Shown: piece by piece, positions 654 through 11,076 of the stretch
How positions within the stretch are numbered: position 1 is the stretch's first letter
Layout of the letters: each line of letters opens with the position of its first letter
Origin: Candidatus Aenigmatarchaeota archaeon
GTDB taxonomy: Archaea; EX4484-52
Assembly: GCA_023137195.1 (NCBI GenBank)
Contig: JAGLPV010000052.1
Span: forward strand, 1-11,076
Direction of reading: 5' to 3'
Length of the DNA stretch: 11,076 nt
The notes under the pieces: model-generated
The model's input: only the letters and a program-made list of their open reading frames with translations
Databases searched by the model: none
What the model was told of the DNA's origin: nothing
Translations under genes and position numbers: made by a program

Positions 654-3600
654 CTAAGAGTTCGTATATTCATCCAGGGATTTAATCTCCAGATTCTGGA
701 GTTTCCTTGATATGATTGCTTCGGTAAATATTTCCGCGATTTTTATGTTGTTGATTAGGGGAACAGAGCAGTCTATGGCGAGTCTTCTCAACATATAATT
801 GTCGCCGTTTGAATTCTGCTCATTTATTCTCGGGATGCAGATAATCAAATCAAGCTTTTTTTCTGTCATGTAATTGTAGATGTTTGGCTGTGTTTTTTCC
901 TTGATTTTATAGAGTTCTGTTGAATTGATGCCGTGTTTTTTGTAAAATTGGGCAGTGTCTTCTGTTGCATAGAGATTGTAATTTTTGCTTTGGAGTTTTT
1001 GGAGGGATTCTGTTAATTTTGCCCTGTTCTTATCTCCGCTTATGCTCACAAGAATGTTTTTTTTTGGGTACTCGAGGTTCGTTGACAATACGGATTTCAA
1101 AAATGCATCATCCAGATTCCTTCCCAGGCATGCGACTTCACCGGTGGAAGCCATCTCCACAGAGAGGAATGGGTCTGCTCCCTTGAGCCGCGAATAGGAA
1201 AACTGTGATGTCTTGACACCCATGTATTTTGGATTTTTTATTTCTACTGAGCCTATTGGTTTGCCAATCATTGCCTGAACTGCTAAATCTATAAAATTAA
1301 CATCCAGGACTTTTGAAATAAAAGGGAAACTGCGGGAGGCTCTTAAGTTGCATTCAATGACCATTATATCTGTGTCTGTTATCAAAAACTGGATATTGAA
1401 CGGTCCTGTAATATTTAAGGCACTTGCTGTTTTTTTTGCAATGTTCTTCATCAGGTTCTTCTCTATGCCACTTATGTTTTGCGTTGGTTGAATCATGGTG
1501 GAGTCTCCGCTGTGCACTCCTGCCTCTTCAATGTGCTCTGATATGGCATAGCATACAATACTGCCGTTGTTTGCGACAGCATCCATCTCAACTTCTTTTG
1601 CATCTTCTACAAATCTTGAAACAACAACAGGGTATTTTTTATTGATGCTTGCTGCTTTTTTTAAGTATTTTAGGAGTTCTTCCTCTGCAAACACTACCTT
1701 CATCGCGGCTCCGCTTAATACATAAGAAGGTCTTATGAGCACAGGATAGATGTCTTTTGCAAAATCGATTGCATCTTCAAGGCTTGTTAGTTGTCTCCAG
1801 ATTGGTTGTTTTATTTCCAGGATGTCCATCAGGTTGGAAAATCTGAACCTATTTTCTGCCCTGTCAATATCTGTTGGGCTTGTCCCGAATATCTTTACTC
1901 CGCTTTTGTAAAAAGGCATTGCCAGATTATTTGGTATCTGACCGCCTACCGAGACTATTATGCCTTCCGGCTTTTCCAGATCATATATATCGCAAATCCT
2001 TTCGAAACTCAATTCATCAAAATAAAGCTTGTCGCATTCATCGTAATCTGTTGAAACTGTTTCCGGGTTGCAGTTAATCATTATTGTTTCGTAATTGTTG
2101 TTTTTCAGGGTCTGGGTTGCGCTTACACAGCACCAGTCGAACTCTACAGAAGAGCCTATCCTGTAACTTCCGCTTCCTACAACAATTGCCTTTGGCATCT
2201 TCTGTCTGTTGTATTTTATGTCGTGCTCAGATGCATCGTATGTTAGATACAAGTAATTTGTTTTGGCGGGATATTCTGCGGCAAGGGTGTCTATCTGCTT
2301 TACATAAGGCACAATGCCGAGAGAGATTCTCTGTTCTCTTATGTCTTTTTCTGTCGTATCTTTCAGCTGGGCTATCTGGGGGTCTGAAAAGCCCTGTTGT
2401 TTTGCTGTTTTTAATAAATCTTTATTGATTGGGCTGTCTTTTATCTTTTGCTTTAATTCAACAAGGTCTTTTATCTTGTATAAAAACCATTTGTCGATGT
2501 ATGTTAAATTGTAAATCTCATCGATGCTCATGCCTTCTTCTATTGCTGTTTCTATTGCAAAGACCCGTTTGTCTGTCGGATGCTTTAGCTCTTCTTTTAG
2601 ATCCTTAAATTTCATGTCATTGCATACTGCACCTGATTTTCCGATGTCCAGCATTCTTATTGCTTTTTGAAGCGCCTCGTTAAAATTTCTTGCGATGGAC
2701 ATTACTTCGCCGACACTTTTCATTTCTGTGTTTATCTGTTTGCTTACATTTGTGAATTTTTCCAGGTCCCATCTTGGAATCTTTAATACTACGTAATCTA
2801 AAGATGGCTCAAAACAGGCGGTTGTTGATTTTGTAACTGAATTTTTTATGTCTGTCAGGCTTTTTCCTATTGCCAGTTTTGCGCCTACGTAGGCTAAAGG
2901 ATATCCTGTTGCTTTTGATGCAAGGGCAGAAGAGCGAGACAGTCTTGCATTTACTTCAATTACACGATAATCGTTGCTGTCTGGGTTCAGGGCATACTGA
3001 ATGTTGCATTCTCCTACTATTCCAAGATGCCTGATTGTCTTTATTGAGATGTCTCTCAAGGAATGATACTGCTCGTTTGTCAGGGTCTGGGAGGGGGCAA
3101 TTACGATGGATTCTCCGGTGTGGATGCCGAGCGGGTCAAAGTTTTCCATATTGCAGACAGTTATGCAGTTGTTATTTTTGTCTCTTACTACTTCGTATTC
3201 TATTTCCTTCCATCCTTCAAGGTATTCTTCTACCAGCATCTGTTTTGTGAGGGAGAAACCCTTCAAAAGCATTTTTTGGAGTTCGTCTTCATCGTAGGCA
3301 ACGCCGCTTCCTGCTCCGCCAAGGGCATAAGCACTTCTTATCATTATCGGGAATTTTATTTTTTTTGATGCAGTCATGCCTTCTTCAACTGAAGTTACGG
3401 CAAAACTTATCGGAGTACTGACATTGATTTCTTTTAATTTTTGCTTGAATAAAGCTCTGTCTTCTGTGTTTTTTATTACGTCTACGCCGGTTCCGAGTAC
3501 TTCAACGTTGTGTTTTTTTAATATGCCTGTATCGTGGAGTTCTACACCGCAATTAAGTGCGGTCTGTCCGCCGAAGGATAGTAGTATGCCGTCTGGTTTT

Positions 3601-3839
3601 TCTTTTTCAATTACTCTTTCAACAAAATATGGAGTAATTGGGAGAAAGTAAATTTTATCGGCTCTGTCCTTGCTGGTCTGGACTGTTGCGACATTTGGGT
3701 TGATTAGGATGACTTCTATGTTGTCGTCTTTTAATGCTTTGATTGCCTGGTTGCCAGAGTAGTCAAATTCTCCTGCCTGTCCTATCTTTAATGCCCCGCT
3801 TCCCAAGAGGAGGACTTTAGTTGGTTTTTTGTCGTCCAT
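654..3839 (-). CDS. carB: Carbamoyl-phosphate synthase large subunit
   Basis: 1061 aa with duplicated ATP-grasp halves: GSGALKIGQAGEFDYSG, NPNVATVQT, GIHTGES, IEVNARLSRSSALASKATGYPLA; second half GSGSYRIGSSVEFDW, NCNPETVSTDYD, RPSYVLSG, GVHSGDS, IECNLRASRS. C-terminal MGS-like domain (YATEDT). Confidence 0.98.
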   Translation of the reverse strand: MDDKKPTKVLLLGSGALKIGQAGEFDYSGNQAIKALKDDNIEVILINPNVATVQTSKDRADKIYFLPITPYFVERVIEKEKPDGILLSFGGQTALNCGVELHDTGILKKHNVEVLGTGVDVIKNTEDRALFKQKLKEINVSTPISFAVTSVEEGMTASKKIKFPIMIRSAYALGGAGSGVAYDEDELQKMLLKGFSLTKQMLVEEYLEGWKEIEYEVVRDKNNNCITVCNMENFDPLGIHTGESIVIAPSQTLTNEQYHSLRDISIKTIRHLGIVGECNIQYALNPDSNDYRVIEVNARLSRSSALASKATGYPLAYVGAKLAIGKSLTDIKNSVTKSTTACFEPSLDYVVLKIPRWDLEKFTNVSKQINTEMKSVGEVMSIARNFNEALQKAIRMLDIGKSGAVCNDMKFKDLKEELKHPTDKRVFAIETAIEEGMSIDEIYNLTYIDKWFLYKIKDLVELKQKIKDSPINKDLLKTAKQQGFSDPQIAQLKDTTEKDIREQRISLGIVPYVKQIDTLAAEYPAKTNYLYLTYDASEHDIKYNRQKMPKAIVVGSGSYRIGSSVEFDWCCVSATQTLKNNNYETIMINCNPETVSTDYDECDKLYFDELSFERICDIYDLEKPEGIIVSVGGQIPNNLAMPFYKSGVKIFGTSPTDIDRAENRFRFSNLMDILEIKQPIWRQLTSLEDAIDFAKDIYPVLIRPSYVLSGAAMKVVFAEEELLKYLKKAASINKKYPVVVSRFVEDAKEVEMDAVANNGSIVCYAISEHIEEAGVHSGDSTMIQPTQNISGIEKNLMKNIAKKTASALNITGPFNIQFLITDTDIMVIECNLRASRSFPFISKVLDVNFIDLAVQAMIGKPIGSVEIKNPKYMGVKTSQFSYSRLKGADPFLSVEMASTGEVACLGRNLDDAFLKSVLSTNLEYPKKNILVSISGDKNRAKLTESLQKLQSKNYNLYATEDTAQFYKKHGINSTELYKIKEKTQPNIYNYMTEKKLDLIICIPRINEQNSNGDNYMLRRLAIDCSVPLINNIKIAEIFTEAIISRKLQNLEIKSLDEYTNS

Positions 3840-3846
3840 AGTAATT

Positions 3847-3877
3847 TTTATAAAGTTGTTTTCGCATAATATATAAT
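3847..3877. promoter_or_regulatory. Overlapping divergent archaeal TATA boxes: TTTATAAA (+, 3847-3854) for a putative small RNA starting near 3879, and TTATATAT-like (-, about 3869-3876) for a near-leaderless carB
   Basis: The plus-strand TTTATAAA ends 25 nt before the GC-rich element begins at G3879. The minus-strand TATA-like box lies about 30 nt upstream of the carB ATG (3839). Spacing fits archaeal TBP promoters; there are no transcript data. Confidence 0.5.
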
Positions 3878-3878
3878 T

Positions 3879-3960
3879 GGGTAAGTCTTGGAAGGTAGGT
3901 ATGTGCCTTGAGGTGCATTCTGCGCGGTGGCAAGCCGACTAATCCTTCTGAGGACCAATT
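3879..3960 (+). ncRNA. Candidate small structured RNA of unknown family (three-way junction)
   Basis: About 54% GC against 16-19% in both flanks (hand count). Closing stem 3886-3895/3944-3953, hairpin 3896-3922, hairpin 3925-3937, outer AATTGG/CCAATT pairing. The many G-U pairs only work on the + strand. TATA upstream and a T-tract (3965-3970) downstream. Confidence 0.55.
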
Positions 3961-4010
3961 TATATTTTTTATTTCCATAATACTTCTTTGTATTAAATCT
4001 CCTGCTTATT

Positions 4011-4847
4011 TTACTCAATCCTTTTTTCATTATCCATATAATTTAATTTTGAAACCACTTTCTTTTTGGTTTCTTCTTCCAGTTCAACTCTTGCATTCTT
4101 TGCGATATTTCCTCCTTTTTTGGCGGAATGCCTGCACTCATTGAATCCTTGCGAATTGTTTGCTTCTGTAATTTCTGTTGTTGCTTTTTCTCCAAGCATT
4201 GTAAAAATTAGCTCTAAATCTGTCATGTGGTCTCTTAAGTTTTGATTTCTTTTGGTTAATCCTTTATGATTTTTATATTCTCCAACCGTTTTTCCAAAAG
4301 TTGCTTTTGAAATCTCGTTTGTCAGGATTGCAAATTCTTTTCCTTCTTTGACTTCTCTTGAGTTCCACTCTTCTGTCAATTCCTGTCGTATGGCGATTCC
4401 TCTTAAGCGTTTGTCAATCCAGTCTTTTGGATATCCTTTTAATTCATAATATTTTTTTACCCTGTCCTGTGCCAACTCAGGATTTTCTATCTCATCGATT
4501 CGGTCTTTTCCCAGTTGCGCCAGCCATTGCTTGAATGGTTCGGCTTTGGGGGAAGGGATTGACTGGATTATGCGAAAAAGAGATTTAATATTGGCGCAAT
4601 CTGTTTCTCTCAACTTTCCATCTGGTGCGGGTAATTTCAACCGGTGACAATTTGTCACCACTTCACTTCCTTCTTCATTTAACCTTTGACTGAGTTTATT
4701 CCAGTATTTTCTGGCTTTTAAGGGGTCTGGTTGATTTGTAAGAATTGCTGTGACATCAACAACAGAAAAATACCACTCTTCATTATGCCAGATTCGTCTT
4801 ATTTTCTTGTCTTCAAAGACGATTAATTTATTGTTTTCTTCCACCAT
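4011..4847 (-). CDS. Bro-N domain DNA-binding protein (phage antirepressor-like family)
   Basis: Motifs IRRIWHNEEWYFSVVDV, YWNKLSQRL, QSIPSPKAEPFKQWLA, GYPKDWIDKRLRG, NLRDHMTDLELIF. Start moved from the ORF-track 4871 to ATG 4847 (278 aa) because a GGAG Shine-Dalgarno lies 4 nt upstream. Overlaps the mazG 3' end by 20 nt. Confidence 0.88.
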   Translation of the reverse strand: MVEENNKLIVFEDKKIRRIWHNEEWYFSVVDVTAILTNQPDPLKARKYWNKLSQRLNEEGSEVVTNCHRLKLPAPDGKLRETDCANIKSLFRIIQSIPSPKAEPFKQWLAQLGKDRIDEIENPELAQDRVKKYYELKGYPKDWIDKRLRGIAIRQELTEEWNSREVKEGKEFAILTNEISKATFGKTVGEYKNHKGLTKRNQNLRDHMTDLELIFTMLGEKATTEITEANNSQGFNECRHSAKKGGNIAKNARVELEEETKKKVVSKLNYMDNEKRIE

Positions 4848-5208
4848 GTTTCTCCTTTTCCTTTTCTTCAAGCCATATTTTTCTTGCTTCTTCTGCCGAG
4901 AGATTTTGACCTGTTTTTAAATAAGGTTTTCTCCTGTTGATTTTGGCTATTGCCTCATCTAAAACCTCTTTTACTGAGAATAATTTTTTCTCTTCTGCCA
5001 TCATGCAAATATGCGCCCAGTCGTGCAGGATGTCGCCCAGTTCTTCTTTTAGATTTTCATTGTCTTTTTTTTCAATGGCTTCAATTACTTCTTCTGATTC
5101 TTTTTTTAATTCATAGCAGTATCCTTCCAGACCTGTTTTTTTTGTCCATGGGTCTTTTTTACAGCTTGTCTTTATCAGTTCAATAAAATCTTCAAATGTC
5201 TGTTTCAT
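4828..5208 (-). CDS. mazG: Single-domain MazG-family nucleotide pyrophosphohydrolase
   Basis: DPW..., E-x-x-E (ESEE) ... EELGD metal-binding motif, KINRRKP and W...K..EK tail typical of the MazG N-terminal domain. ATG 5208 overlaps the carA stop (ATGA) and has a GAGGGGTG SD-like sequence upstream; 126 aa. Confidence 0.88.
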   Translation of the reverse strand: MKQTFEDFIELIKTSCKKDPWTKKTGLEGYCYELKKESEEVIEAIEKKDNENLKEELGDILHDWAHICMMAEEKKLFSVKEVLDEAIAKINRRKPYLKTGQNLSAEEARKIWLEEKEKEKHGGRKQ

Positions 5209-6317
5209 TTTTCGCACCCCTCTATTAATTTTGCAAATTCAGCAAATAAATACTGCGTGTCATTTGGTCCAGGGTTTGCTTCAGGGTGGAACTGGACAGA
5301 CATAAATGGTTTTGTCTTATGTTTTATGCCCTCGTTTGTCTTGTCGTTTGCATTGAAAAACCAGTCCTTCCATTCTTCAGATAATGTTTTTTCATCTACG
5401 GCAAAGCCATGATTCTGGCTGGTGATGTAGCATCGGTTTGTTCCTGTTTCGATGCATGGCTGGTTCTGACTCCTGTGACCGTATTTTAATTTGTATGTCT
5501 TTGCTCCTGCGGCAAGCGCGAGGAGTTGGTTCCCTAAGCAAATGCCGAAAATTGGTTTATTGTATTTTAAGCTCTTTTTTAGAATTTCAATTGTCTTTGT
5601 GCATTTGGCGGGGTCTCCCGGACCGTTTGAAATGAAAACTGCATCGTAAGCAATTCCTTCTTTTATAAAATCGTAATCGTAGGGAACCCTGATGATTTCC
5701 AAATTATTCTTTATTAGATTTTTGATAATTGAATGCTTTACTCCGCAGTCAATCAGGACCACTTTCTTTTTTCCTTCGCCGGAATTGTATTTTATGACTT
5801 TTTTTGTGGTTATGTCTTTTACTAAATCATCATTGTCTGGATTGTAGAAATCAATATCCTGTTCGTCAAAGATTATTTTGCCGAGCATTGTGCCTTTCTC
5901 TCTTATTTTTTTTGTCAGGGCTCTTGTGTCAATGCCTGCAATTGCCGGAATGTCATTTTCTGTTAAAAATTTGGACAATGATTTTACTGCTGTGTGGTGG
6001 CTGTATTTTTGGCAATACTGGCTTACTATAAGACCAGAGACGTGTATTTTTTCTGATTCAAAATTTATGTTTAATTTGTCTTTGTCAGATTCGTTTTTTG
6101 GGACTCCGTAATTTCCGATTAAAGGGTAAGTGAATGTTAATATCTGCCCGGAGTAGGATGGGTCTGTCAGGGTCTGGTTGTAGCCGACCATTCCTGTGTT
6201 AAATACAACTTCTCCGCTCCTGCTGTTCTGTGAACCAAAACTGGTTCCTTCGTAGATAGAGCCATCTTCAAGAACAAGAAAACATTTTTTAGATTTTTTA
6301 TTTGAACTCATCTTCAT
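5205..6317 (-). CDS. carA: Carbamoyl-phosphate synthase small subunit (glutamine amidotransferase)
   Basis: 370 aa. LVLEDG, GEVVFNTGMVGY, LTDPSYSGQI, YPLIGNYG, GIDTRALT, SNGPGDP, catalytic GICLG, TSQNHGF and QFHPE; the class I GATase triad is intact. Confidence 0.98.
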   Translation of the reverse strand: MKMSSNKKSKKCFLVLEDGSIYEGTSFGSQNSRSGEVVFNTGMVGYNQTLTDPSYSGQILTFTYPLIGNYGVPKNESDKDKLNINFESEKIHVSGLIVSQYCQKYSHHTAVKSLSKFLTENDIPAIAGIDTRALTKKIREKGTMLGKIIFDEQDIDFYNPDNDDLVKDITTKKVIKYNSGEGKKKVVLIDCGVKHSIIKNLIKNNLEIIRVPYDYDFIKEGIAYDAVFISNGPGDPAKCTKTIEILKKSLKYNKPIFGICLGNQLLALAAGAKTYKLKYGHRSQNQPCIETGTNRCYITSQNHGFAVDEKTLSEEWKDWFFNANDKTNEGIKHKTKPFMSVQFHPEANPGPNDTQYLFAEFAKLIEGCEK

Positions 6318-10236: not shown

Positions 10237-11076
10237 ATTCCGGTTGATCCTGCCGGAGATTACTGCTATTAGAATTTGACTAAGCCATGCGAGTCAGAGG
10301 TTTTATTATACTGGCAAAAGGCTGAGTAACACGTAGTCAACTTGCCCTTAAGTCAGGCATATCCTTGGGAAACTGAGGTTAATTCCTGATAGGAAATATT
10401 TTCTGGAATGATGTATTTCTGAAAGTTACGACGCTTAAGGATAGGACTGCGGTGGATTAGGTTGTTGTTGGGGTAAAGGCCCAACAAGCCGATAATCTAT
10501 AGGGGCTGTGAGAGCAGTAGCCCTCAGATGGATTCTGAGACACGAATCCAGACCCTACGGGGTGCAGCAGGCGCGAAACCTTCACAATGCACAATATGTG
10601 TGATGGGGAGATTCTAAGTGGCAGCATAACGCTGTCTTTTGAAAAGTTGAAACATCTTTTCGAATAAGTGGTGGGTAAGACGGTTGCCAGCCGCCGCGGT
10701 AATAACCGCGCCACAAGTGGTAATCTCGATTATTGGGTCTAAAGCATCCGTAGCCGGTGATATAAGTTTCCTGTGAAATCCAAATGAAAACATTTGGGCA
10801 TGCAGAAAATACTGTATCACTTGAGACTGGGAGGAGCAAGAGGTACTCGAGGGGAAGGGGTAAAATCTATTAATCCCTCGGGGGTCACCAGTGGCGAAGG
10901 CGTCTTGCTAGAACAGGTCTGACGGTGAGGGATGAAAGCCAGGGGAGCGAAGAGGATTAGATACCCTTGTAGTCCTGGCTGTAAACGATGTCCGTTAGGT
11001 ATTGTAGTTTTTAAGAGAAACTATAGTGCCGTAGGGAAGCCGTTAAACGGACCACCTGGGGAGTACGGTCGCAAGG
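10237..11076 (+). rRNA. rrs: Archaeal 16S rRNA, 5' part (runs off the window end)
   Basis: Begins ATTCCGGTTGATCCTGCCGGA (archaeal 5' signature). Contains CTACGGGGTGCAGCAGGCGCGAAA, CAGCCGCCGCGGTAA, ATTAGATACCCTTGTAGTCC and CCTGGGGAGTACGGTCGCAAGG in the expected order. Confidence 0.99.

Follow-up and report, generated by a model that had tools for sequence, protein, structure and literature searches.

The 11,076-nucleotide stretch of archaeal DNA analysed here (the window) holds, between a Bro-N gene and carB, a GC-rich island that is on balance best read as an accessory, relocatable small RNA gene of an undescribed family. The initial annotation had placed an unannotated small RNA gene here, structured, encoded on the plus strand and equipped with a TATA-like box and a T-run of its own, and our analysis supports this candidate. 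We infer its transcription, the ends of its RNA and any function from the DNA sequence.

The bro-carB spacer and its GC-rich island

The window is contig C48 of an assembly (G000) that comprises 1.42 Mb in 57 contigs, is 85% complete and has a GC content of 35.3%. Its minus strand carries carA (5205-6317, identified by Pfam), a MazG gene (4828-5217, ORF list and Pfam), a Bro-N gene (bro, 4011-4871; PF02498, E = 5.5e-12) and an open reading frame (ORF; 654-3839) that we call carB from its place beside carA, as the initial annotation did; homologues of its first 200 residues were matched in 24 of the 45 other genomes searched. Presumably carA, mazG, bro and carB form a single minus-strand transcript. 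The stop codon of bro (4011-4013, minus strand) and the start codon of carB (3837-3839, minus strand) are separated by a spacer of 171 nt, and the island lies inside it. The stretch is present in nine public sequencing runs, all of DNA, with no RNA run listed among them.

At least five paralogues of the Bro-N gene were found in G000 (on contigs C1, C2, C4, C55 and C51), and relatives with 57-72% protein identity occur in many archaeal and bacterial MAGs, in at least 597 confirmed stretches, a breadth that would fit a widely exchanged gene.

The sharp GC island noted in the initial annotation is borne out by the numbers, with 54.4% GC at 3879-3957 against 15.4% and 18.9% in the flanks (3840-3878 and 3958-4010), and all the pairing elements listed there (P1, P2, P3, the ACUAAU junction strand and the outer AAUUGG/CCAAUU pairing) are indeed in the sequence. 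Read on the plus strand, the outer helix P0 pairs its 5' arm AAUUGG (3875-3880) with its 3' arm CCAAUU (3955-3960), and the two arms could equally be left and right terminal inverted repeats. Inside P0 the unpaired GUAAG (3881-3885) forms an asymmetric internal loop facing position 3954; GUAAG is the same in the window and in the related sequence L061 described below, and the base opposite it is A in the window and U in L061. P1 joins 3886-3894 (the boundary lying at 3894 or 3895) to 3945-3953 (beginning at 3944 or 3945) by nine pairs, and encloses the P2 hairpin (3895-3923; 12 pairs, one bulge and a 4-nt UUGA loop), the P3 hairpin (3925-3937; CGGU stem and GGCAA loop) and the junction strand ACUAAU (3938-3943). 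Both P3 and the junction strand are identical in L061, and the identity of P3 in the two copies thus speaks neither for nor against its pairing.

On its own, the fold of the window copy is weak: RNAfold gives -27.2 kcal/mol with z = -1.4 to -1.5, and 16-21 of 200 shuffles are as good. The minus strand of the window folds no better than shuffles (z = +0.26 to +0.38). As to the estimate of about eight G-U pairs in the initial annotation, eight were counted in the window copy.

Signals flanking the island are those of a transcription unit on the plus strand. The TATA-box-like TTTATAAA (3847-3854), read from the sequence and presumed to be the promoter, lies 25 nt before G3879, its motif starting 32-34 nt ahead of the island. 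The corresponding box of L061 is TTTATATA, with identical 25-nt spacing to the conserved GGUAAG. Upstream of the 38 tRNA genes of G000 we saw 17 such motif starts, six of which lie at -34 to -30, a position with which the box of the element agrees. Oligo-T runs stop archaeal RNA polymerase, and a T6 run (3965-3970, plus strand), again read from the sequence, is the presumed terminator; L061 has a T4 run at the matching place, after which comes TTATTTCCA, common to both copies. An independently transcribed archaeal sRNA would be expected to have a TATA box some 25-30 nt ahead of the RNA and to be followed by an oligo-T run, and both copies show this arrangement.

Comparison with a diverged copy beside purM

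Relatives were sought in the JGI metagenomes by a single exact 20-mer scan, which matched two contigs, L060 and L061. The match to L060 was a chance 20-mer and was discarded, leaving L061 as the one true relative found: its positions 1014-1135 are 83% identical to window 3847-3967 over 123 nt. Within the core (3880-3958) 71 of 79 positions are identical, compared with 17 of 28 between the TATA box and the outer arm (Fisher p = 0.0012). The near-neutral level for the same two organisms is given by third codon positions of purM, identical at 100 of 133 (about 75%), and by a decayed Bro-N copy, with 74% identity. The two organisms are close, the purM fragment of L061 showing 92% protein identity to C1:60529-60927 of G000.

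The two copies differ in 11 of 86 aligned columns. Eight of these differences lie in paired columns and every pair is retained, two pairs being changed on both sides and four (in P1 and P2) on one side. Both double compensatory changes, the only ones observed, fall in the outer pairing proposed in the initial annotation, P0 reading UAUUAG/CUAAUA in L061 with two of its six pairs doubly compensated. P1 has undergone two one-sided changes, from G-U to G-C and from U-G to U-A, and none of its pairs is broken, while in P2 two G-U pairs become A-U and the bulge and the loop show one change each; the internal loop accounts for the last of the three differences outside the stems. Across both sequences each of the 62 pair cells is a standard pair, and sliding the partners by 1-3 columns reduces this fraction to 36-45%. 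In a simulation, 0.0001-0.002 of trials (0.01-0.2%) left all 31 pairs intact after 11 random substitutions. A shuffle control of pairing gave 117/500, but with only two alignment rows it cannot discriminate.

L061 has the same architecture as the window copy, with -33.4 kcal/mol, z = -3.76 and only 1 of 200 shuffles as good. Shuffling both strands, a check put forward in the initial annotation, thus gave a weak result for the plus strand of the window and a clear one for that of L061. Side by side, the z-scores of the plus and minus strands are -1.46 and +0.26 for the window and -3.76 and -2.21 for L061. Four G-U pairs are retained in both copies, which also favours the plus strand. At the level of sequence, the comparison shows that base pairing is under selection and that the core is kept above the neutral level, and it lifts the window element above chance, the comparative evidence resting on two sequences for which covariation statistics are thin.

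We found no ORF of 40 aa or more across the element in L061, indicating that the minus-strand ORFs seen in the window are not conserved. By eye, a 13-codon plus-strand ORF (ATG to TAA, window 3901-3942) is kept in L061 with two non-synonymous changes and no synonymous one; we discarded it as a coding sequence, its occurrence being probably due to chance.

Presence, absence and relocation of the element

In L061 the unit has a Bro-N gene on one side and a second, decayed Bro-N copy on the other, both on its own strand, with purM beyond the latter. The intact gene is 65% identical to the Bro-N gene of the window and 76% to the C1 paralogue. The decayed copy (L061:1152-1364) is without its first ~45-50 codons and has an internal deletion, and the RNA unit occupies the place where its 5' end would be expected. 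The Bro-N/purM locus of G000 itself, on C1, is without the unit. The RNA gene converges on bro in the window and follows the Bro-N gene in tandem in L061, suggesting that its link to Bro-N is one of neighbourhood and not of a fixed operon. Occurrence of the same unit at the purM locus implies that the gene would relocate at the DNA level together with its promoter and that it is not a fixed housekeeping RNA.

Presence and absence were also observed among strains at the carB locus. Contigs with the island come from sequencing runs X3 (557 nt, one difference) and X4 (155 nt, no difference), and one contig each in X5 and X4 represents a short allele that joins 3833 to 4031 via 32 other letters. 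The short-allele contig of X5 (453 nt) has one difference over 3573-3833 and ten over 4031-4190. Read by eye, the 32 letters comprise the last six bro codons and the stop codon, a 9-nt spacer and the carB ATG. The bro-carB junction is equally tight in the congener G001 (~6 nt). The short allele in a co-occurring, near-identical strain and the spacer of G001 together suggest that the tight junction is ancestral and that ~162 nt, corresponding to the segment absent from the short allele (3846-4007 by the X4 and X5 contigs, with edges uncertain by a few bases), were gained here. We thus propose that the element was inserted recently between the Bro-N stop and the carB start, at a former 6-9-nt junction. 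These data show that the element is present in some strains and absent from others and that it occupies a different locus in the relative.

As to copy number, for which the initial annotation had asked for a check, the element is single-copy in G000 by BLAST, covariance model and short-word BLAST, the assembly being 85% complete. A homologue with compensatory changes, the lack of which the initial annotation had listed among refuting findings, exists in the form of L061. BLASTN against 60 relatives yielded only chance matches of 14-24 nt, those inspected lying in coding-looking sequence, and the covariance models R1 and R2 gave no hit in the 41 further genomes searched for the phylum (the sets for order, class and phylum being the same 42 genomes). 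With laxer filters R2 did not detect the element in three congeners (57-75% complete) either. Five exact or degenerate motifs gave only chance matches in genome and viral contigs (a Flavobacteriaceae coding region, Blastopirellula, a Paludibacteraceae MAG and one viral contig), none of which scored with R2, and the phage and plasmid collections held no relative. Its absence from the relatives searched suggests that the element is dispensable, and no partner gene points to a function. With R2, 80 loci that surround Bro-N homologues of other species yielded no relative, implying that the RNA is not a general Bro-N companion, and the other Bro-N paralogues inspected have no similar adjoining GC island.

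Two possible sources of the element were discarded. Descent from a tRNA-linked repeat of G000 was rejected as the nhmmer profile of this repeat does not match the element, and descent from Bro-N coding sequence as the decayed copy that flanks the element was all that blastx matched in L061; the promoter region of the window has two 12-nt matches to bro, which are probably chance.

Other features were observed elsewhere in G000 in the course of these searches. The tRNA-linked repeat, a conserved element of ~160-170 nt, begins right after the tRNA discriminator base and has at least 13 copies (for example C2:4235-4400, C45:43608-43780, C50:1-150 and C54:7388-7545); its first arm co-varies between subfamilies, and in three copies Rfam at E up to 0.1 recognized nothing but the tRNA. 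The ARAGORN census comprises 38 tRNA genes and is without tRNA-Tyr, Lys-UUU, Thr-UGU and Thr-CGU, and a tRNA-Val(GAC)-like sequence with unpaired acceptor arms, seen by eye at ~C5:22545-22620 just before a tRNA-Glu, was left uncalled. RNase P RNA is located at C56:24430-24710 and a 5S-like sequence, by eye, at C56:15758-15856, and Archaea_SRP (RF01857) gave no match at E up to 0.01 in the 85%-complete assembly. Four GC-rich intergenic islands (C15:4392-4458, C54:2308-2406, C56:36284-36352 and C37:8740-8821) have a purine-rich 3' motif in common and three of them a 5' TTCTGC; they may be another small RNA family. Motifs of the CCACGG/CACGGAAC type are repeated in GC-rich intergenic sequence at C21:2498-4809, C33:5415-5490, C55:447-508 and C8:8682-8733.

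Nature of the element

Among the other readings, a small non-autonomous transposable element, MITE-like or palindrome-associated, in which P0 and the internal hairpins act as DNA and any transcript is incidental, is an unlikely candidate. The element resembles MITEs and REP-like palindromes in its size (~90-160 bp), its terminal inverted repeat and its presence or absence between strains: neither G001 nor a near-identical strain has it at this junction, and L061 has it elsewhere. Its 6-bp terminal arms co-vary, as would be expected of ends recognized by a single transposase, and G000 contains many other families of short dispersed repeats. Moreover, with a start site ~23-24 nt downstream of the TATA box, the predicted RNA would lack most of the 5' arm of P0, whose double compensatory changes agree with an inverted repeat in DNA as well as with an RNA helix; P0 may thus be a DNA-level inverted repeat, which keeps the MITE-like reading alive. 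Only one of three MITE hallmarks is clearly present, however: the terminal inverted repeats are there and dispersed copies are missing, the element being single-copy and without likeness to the repeat families of G000 (nhmmer profile and short-word BLAST). As to a target-site duplication, TATAT is found next to both arms in the window, but no direct repeat borders the element in L061. Likeness between the copies goes on past the repeats, for 28 nt on the left, where the TATA boxes are in register (binomial p ~0.01), and for ~20 nt on the right. RNA, and not duplex DNA, is indicated by the conserved, strand-specific G-U pairs and by folding that differs between the strands. Thus, of the REP/MITE-like alternative in the initial annotation, movement of the unit stands, whereas its single copy and the likeness to L061 that extends beyond the terminal repeats into the promoter do not fit.

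It is more doubtful that the island is a functionless scar, that is, a piece of foreign or rearranged DNA that recombination left behind between bro and carB, where the Bro-N surroundings are variable. Such an origin would agree with the rearranged Bro-N surroundings of both copies, with the decayed Bro-N copy right after the element in L061, with the other sequence that the Bro-N/purM locus of G000 holds where L061 has the element, with a GC content foreign to G000 and with absence from most relatives. A scar would not be expected to have a core conserved above the near-neutral level where its own flanks are not, to retain the pair at every stem substitution or to keep the spacing between box and island.

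We consider it very improbable that the island acts in cis within the minus-strand carB message, i.e. as a leader, an attenuator or a protein-binding site. Such a role would suit its location, 40-120 nt ahead of the carB start codon and within the transcript presumed for carA-mazG-bro-carB, but the minus strand of the window lacks a fold better than shuffles, the eight G-U pairs become C-A mismatches on it, strains and congeners express carB without the element, and the relative beside purM, in the other orientation, largely refutes the idea. Dedicated control of carB, raised as a possibility in the initial annotation, finds no support as a general role, given the same relative and near-identical strains that have carB and no element.

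Membership in a known RNA class was assessed with both copies. ARAGORN found no tRNA gene in the window, and neither 3800-4020 nor L061 980-1180 was recognized by RF00005 at E up to 10, the same model giving 50-70 bits for flanking tRNAs elsewhere. A tRNA-like 3' acceptor end (discriminator and CCA) is suggested by the ACCA of the window copy and is not found in L061; as the 38 tRNA genes of G000 are as a rule without encoded CCA, an ACCA end is not a habit of tRNA genes in this genome. The GGACCA end described in the initial annotation is thus present in the window but is not a general feature. At gathering thresholds Rfam 15, which includes SRP, RNase P, riboswitches, hammerhead, twister, pistol, hatchet and HDV-like models, matched only the 16S rRNA gene across the window (beginning at 10237). 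All 4227 Rfam models scored at most 17 bits, with E = 0.57 or worse, against both copies, and these matches were to unrelated families. Noise matches in the window at E up to 10 were to miRNA, lncRNA and CRISPR-repeat models, and the best matches overlapping the element (plant or animal miRNA and Listeria sRNA) reached 13.8-15.5 bits at E = 2.6-5.9, against thresholds of 60-100.

C/D box sRNAs have a C box (RUGAUGA), a D box (CUGA) and a K-turn by the terminal stem. No C box, ACA box or tandem G-A pairs were seen by eye in the element, and the sole CUGA of the window is CCAA in L061, where ACCA/GGACCA and CUGAGGA are altered as well. Neither copy has an ANA box after the closing stem, and no H/ACA family of Rfam matched. 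GCGCGGUGGC...UAAUCC presumably resembles the 5' part of SRP Alu domains; this likeness, a K-turn and the hammerhead motif CUGANGA were rejected, being either not kept in L061 or without Rfam support. A divergent tRNA or tRNA-like RNA, C/D or H/ACA guide, SRP Alu-like domain or small self-cleaving ribozyme, for which the ACCA after a long stem, CUGA and CUGAGGA in the window copy and the tRNA-Tyr missing from the census might be cited, is therefore most improbable of all. The initial annotation, which could not assign the element to a known RNA class, is corroborated by the Rfam, ARAGORN and motif checks, all of them negative, and the Rfam and tRNA searches that it called for revealed neither a family nor a tRNA.

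According to the reading we favour, an accessory, relocatable small RNA gene, a compact unit of ~120-160 bp would carry the gene. TBP and TFB would bind the TTTATAAA box at 3847-3854, transcription would start on the plus strand near 3877-3881 and end at the T6 run (3965-3970), and the resulting RNA of ~85-95 nt would fold as a three-way junction that is closed by P1 and comprises the long bulged hairpin P2, the short P3 with its GGCAA loop and the 6-nt ACUAAU strand. The whole unit, promoter included, would have been inserted between the Bro-N stop and the carB start. As to its role, our guess is a trans-acting, protein-binding RNA tied to the Bro-N or mobile-element neighbourhood.

With the insert, the sequence 7-40 nt before carB is AT-rich and partly palindromic. 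Antisense transcription and possibly a new promoter before carB could be local side effects of the insertion. Interference with the carB promoter is possible in the window but cannot be a conserved role; with the relative at purM and carB without the element in other strains, the link to carB is local at most.

The element may work like an ordinary archaeal sRNA gene. Archaea are known to have intergenic genes for small non-coding RNAs that carry a TATA box and an oligo-T terminator of their own (for example those reviewed in PMC3432209). By analogy with these, the element combines a promoter box, a structured GC-rich RNA and a T-run in an AT-rich genome, and it is intergenic and antisense to its neighbours; it differs in having no family match, only two known copies, no synteny in close relatives and a transcription that is predicted. 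Guide RNA genes that relocate within a genus are likewise small RNA genes with shifting position, some of which adjoin or overlap the ends of protein genes, and some MITE-like elements resemble sRNAs. The element, in contrast, is without C, D and K-turn motifs, is present once and not in ~15 copies, and forms a three-way junction. Eukaryotic SINE-type elements are mobile and derived from RNA genes, and the element shares with them that a small RNA gene turns up at new loci; unlike in SINEs, its upstream promoter moves along, and there is neither an A-tail nor a reverse transcriptase nearby. Movement of the promoter with the gene argues for movement as DNA and not for retroposition.

A bolder idea, which we regard as improbable, is a self-contained mobile RNA gene: a cassette of promoter, RNA and terminator that would home to the ends of Bro-N genes, with an RNA acting in mobility or in the conflict between mobile element and host (as a guide, a recombination RNA of the bridge type or an antidote to the Bro-N protein, for instance), and that would rewire host operons such as carA-mazG-bro-carB.

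If the accessory RNA gene is transcribed, it would represent a new family of structured RNAs, found in an uncultured archaeal lineage that has hardly been studied, and a clean natural example of an RNA gene that changes its locus between close relatives together with its promoter. The split of the tight bro-carB junction would then be a small natural experiment on how far an operon tolerates an antisense transcription unit.
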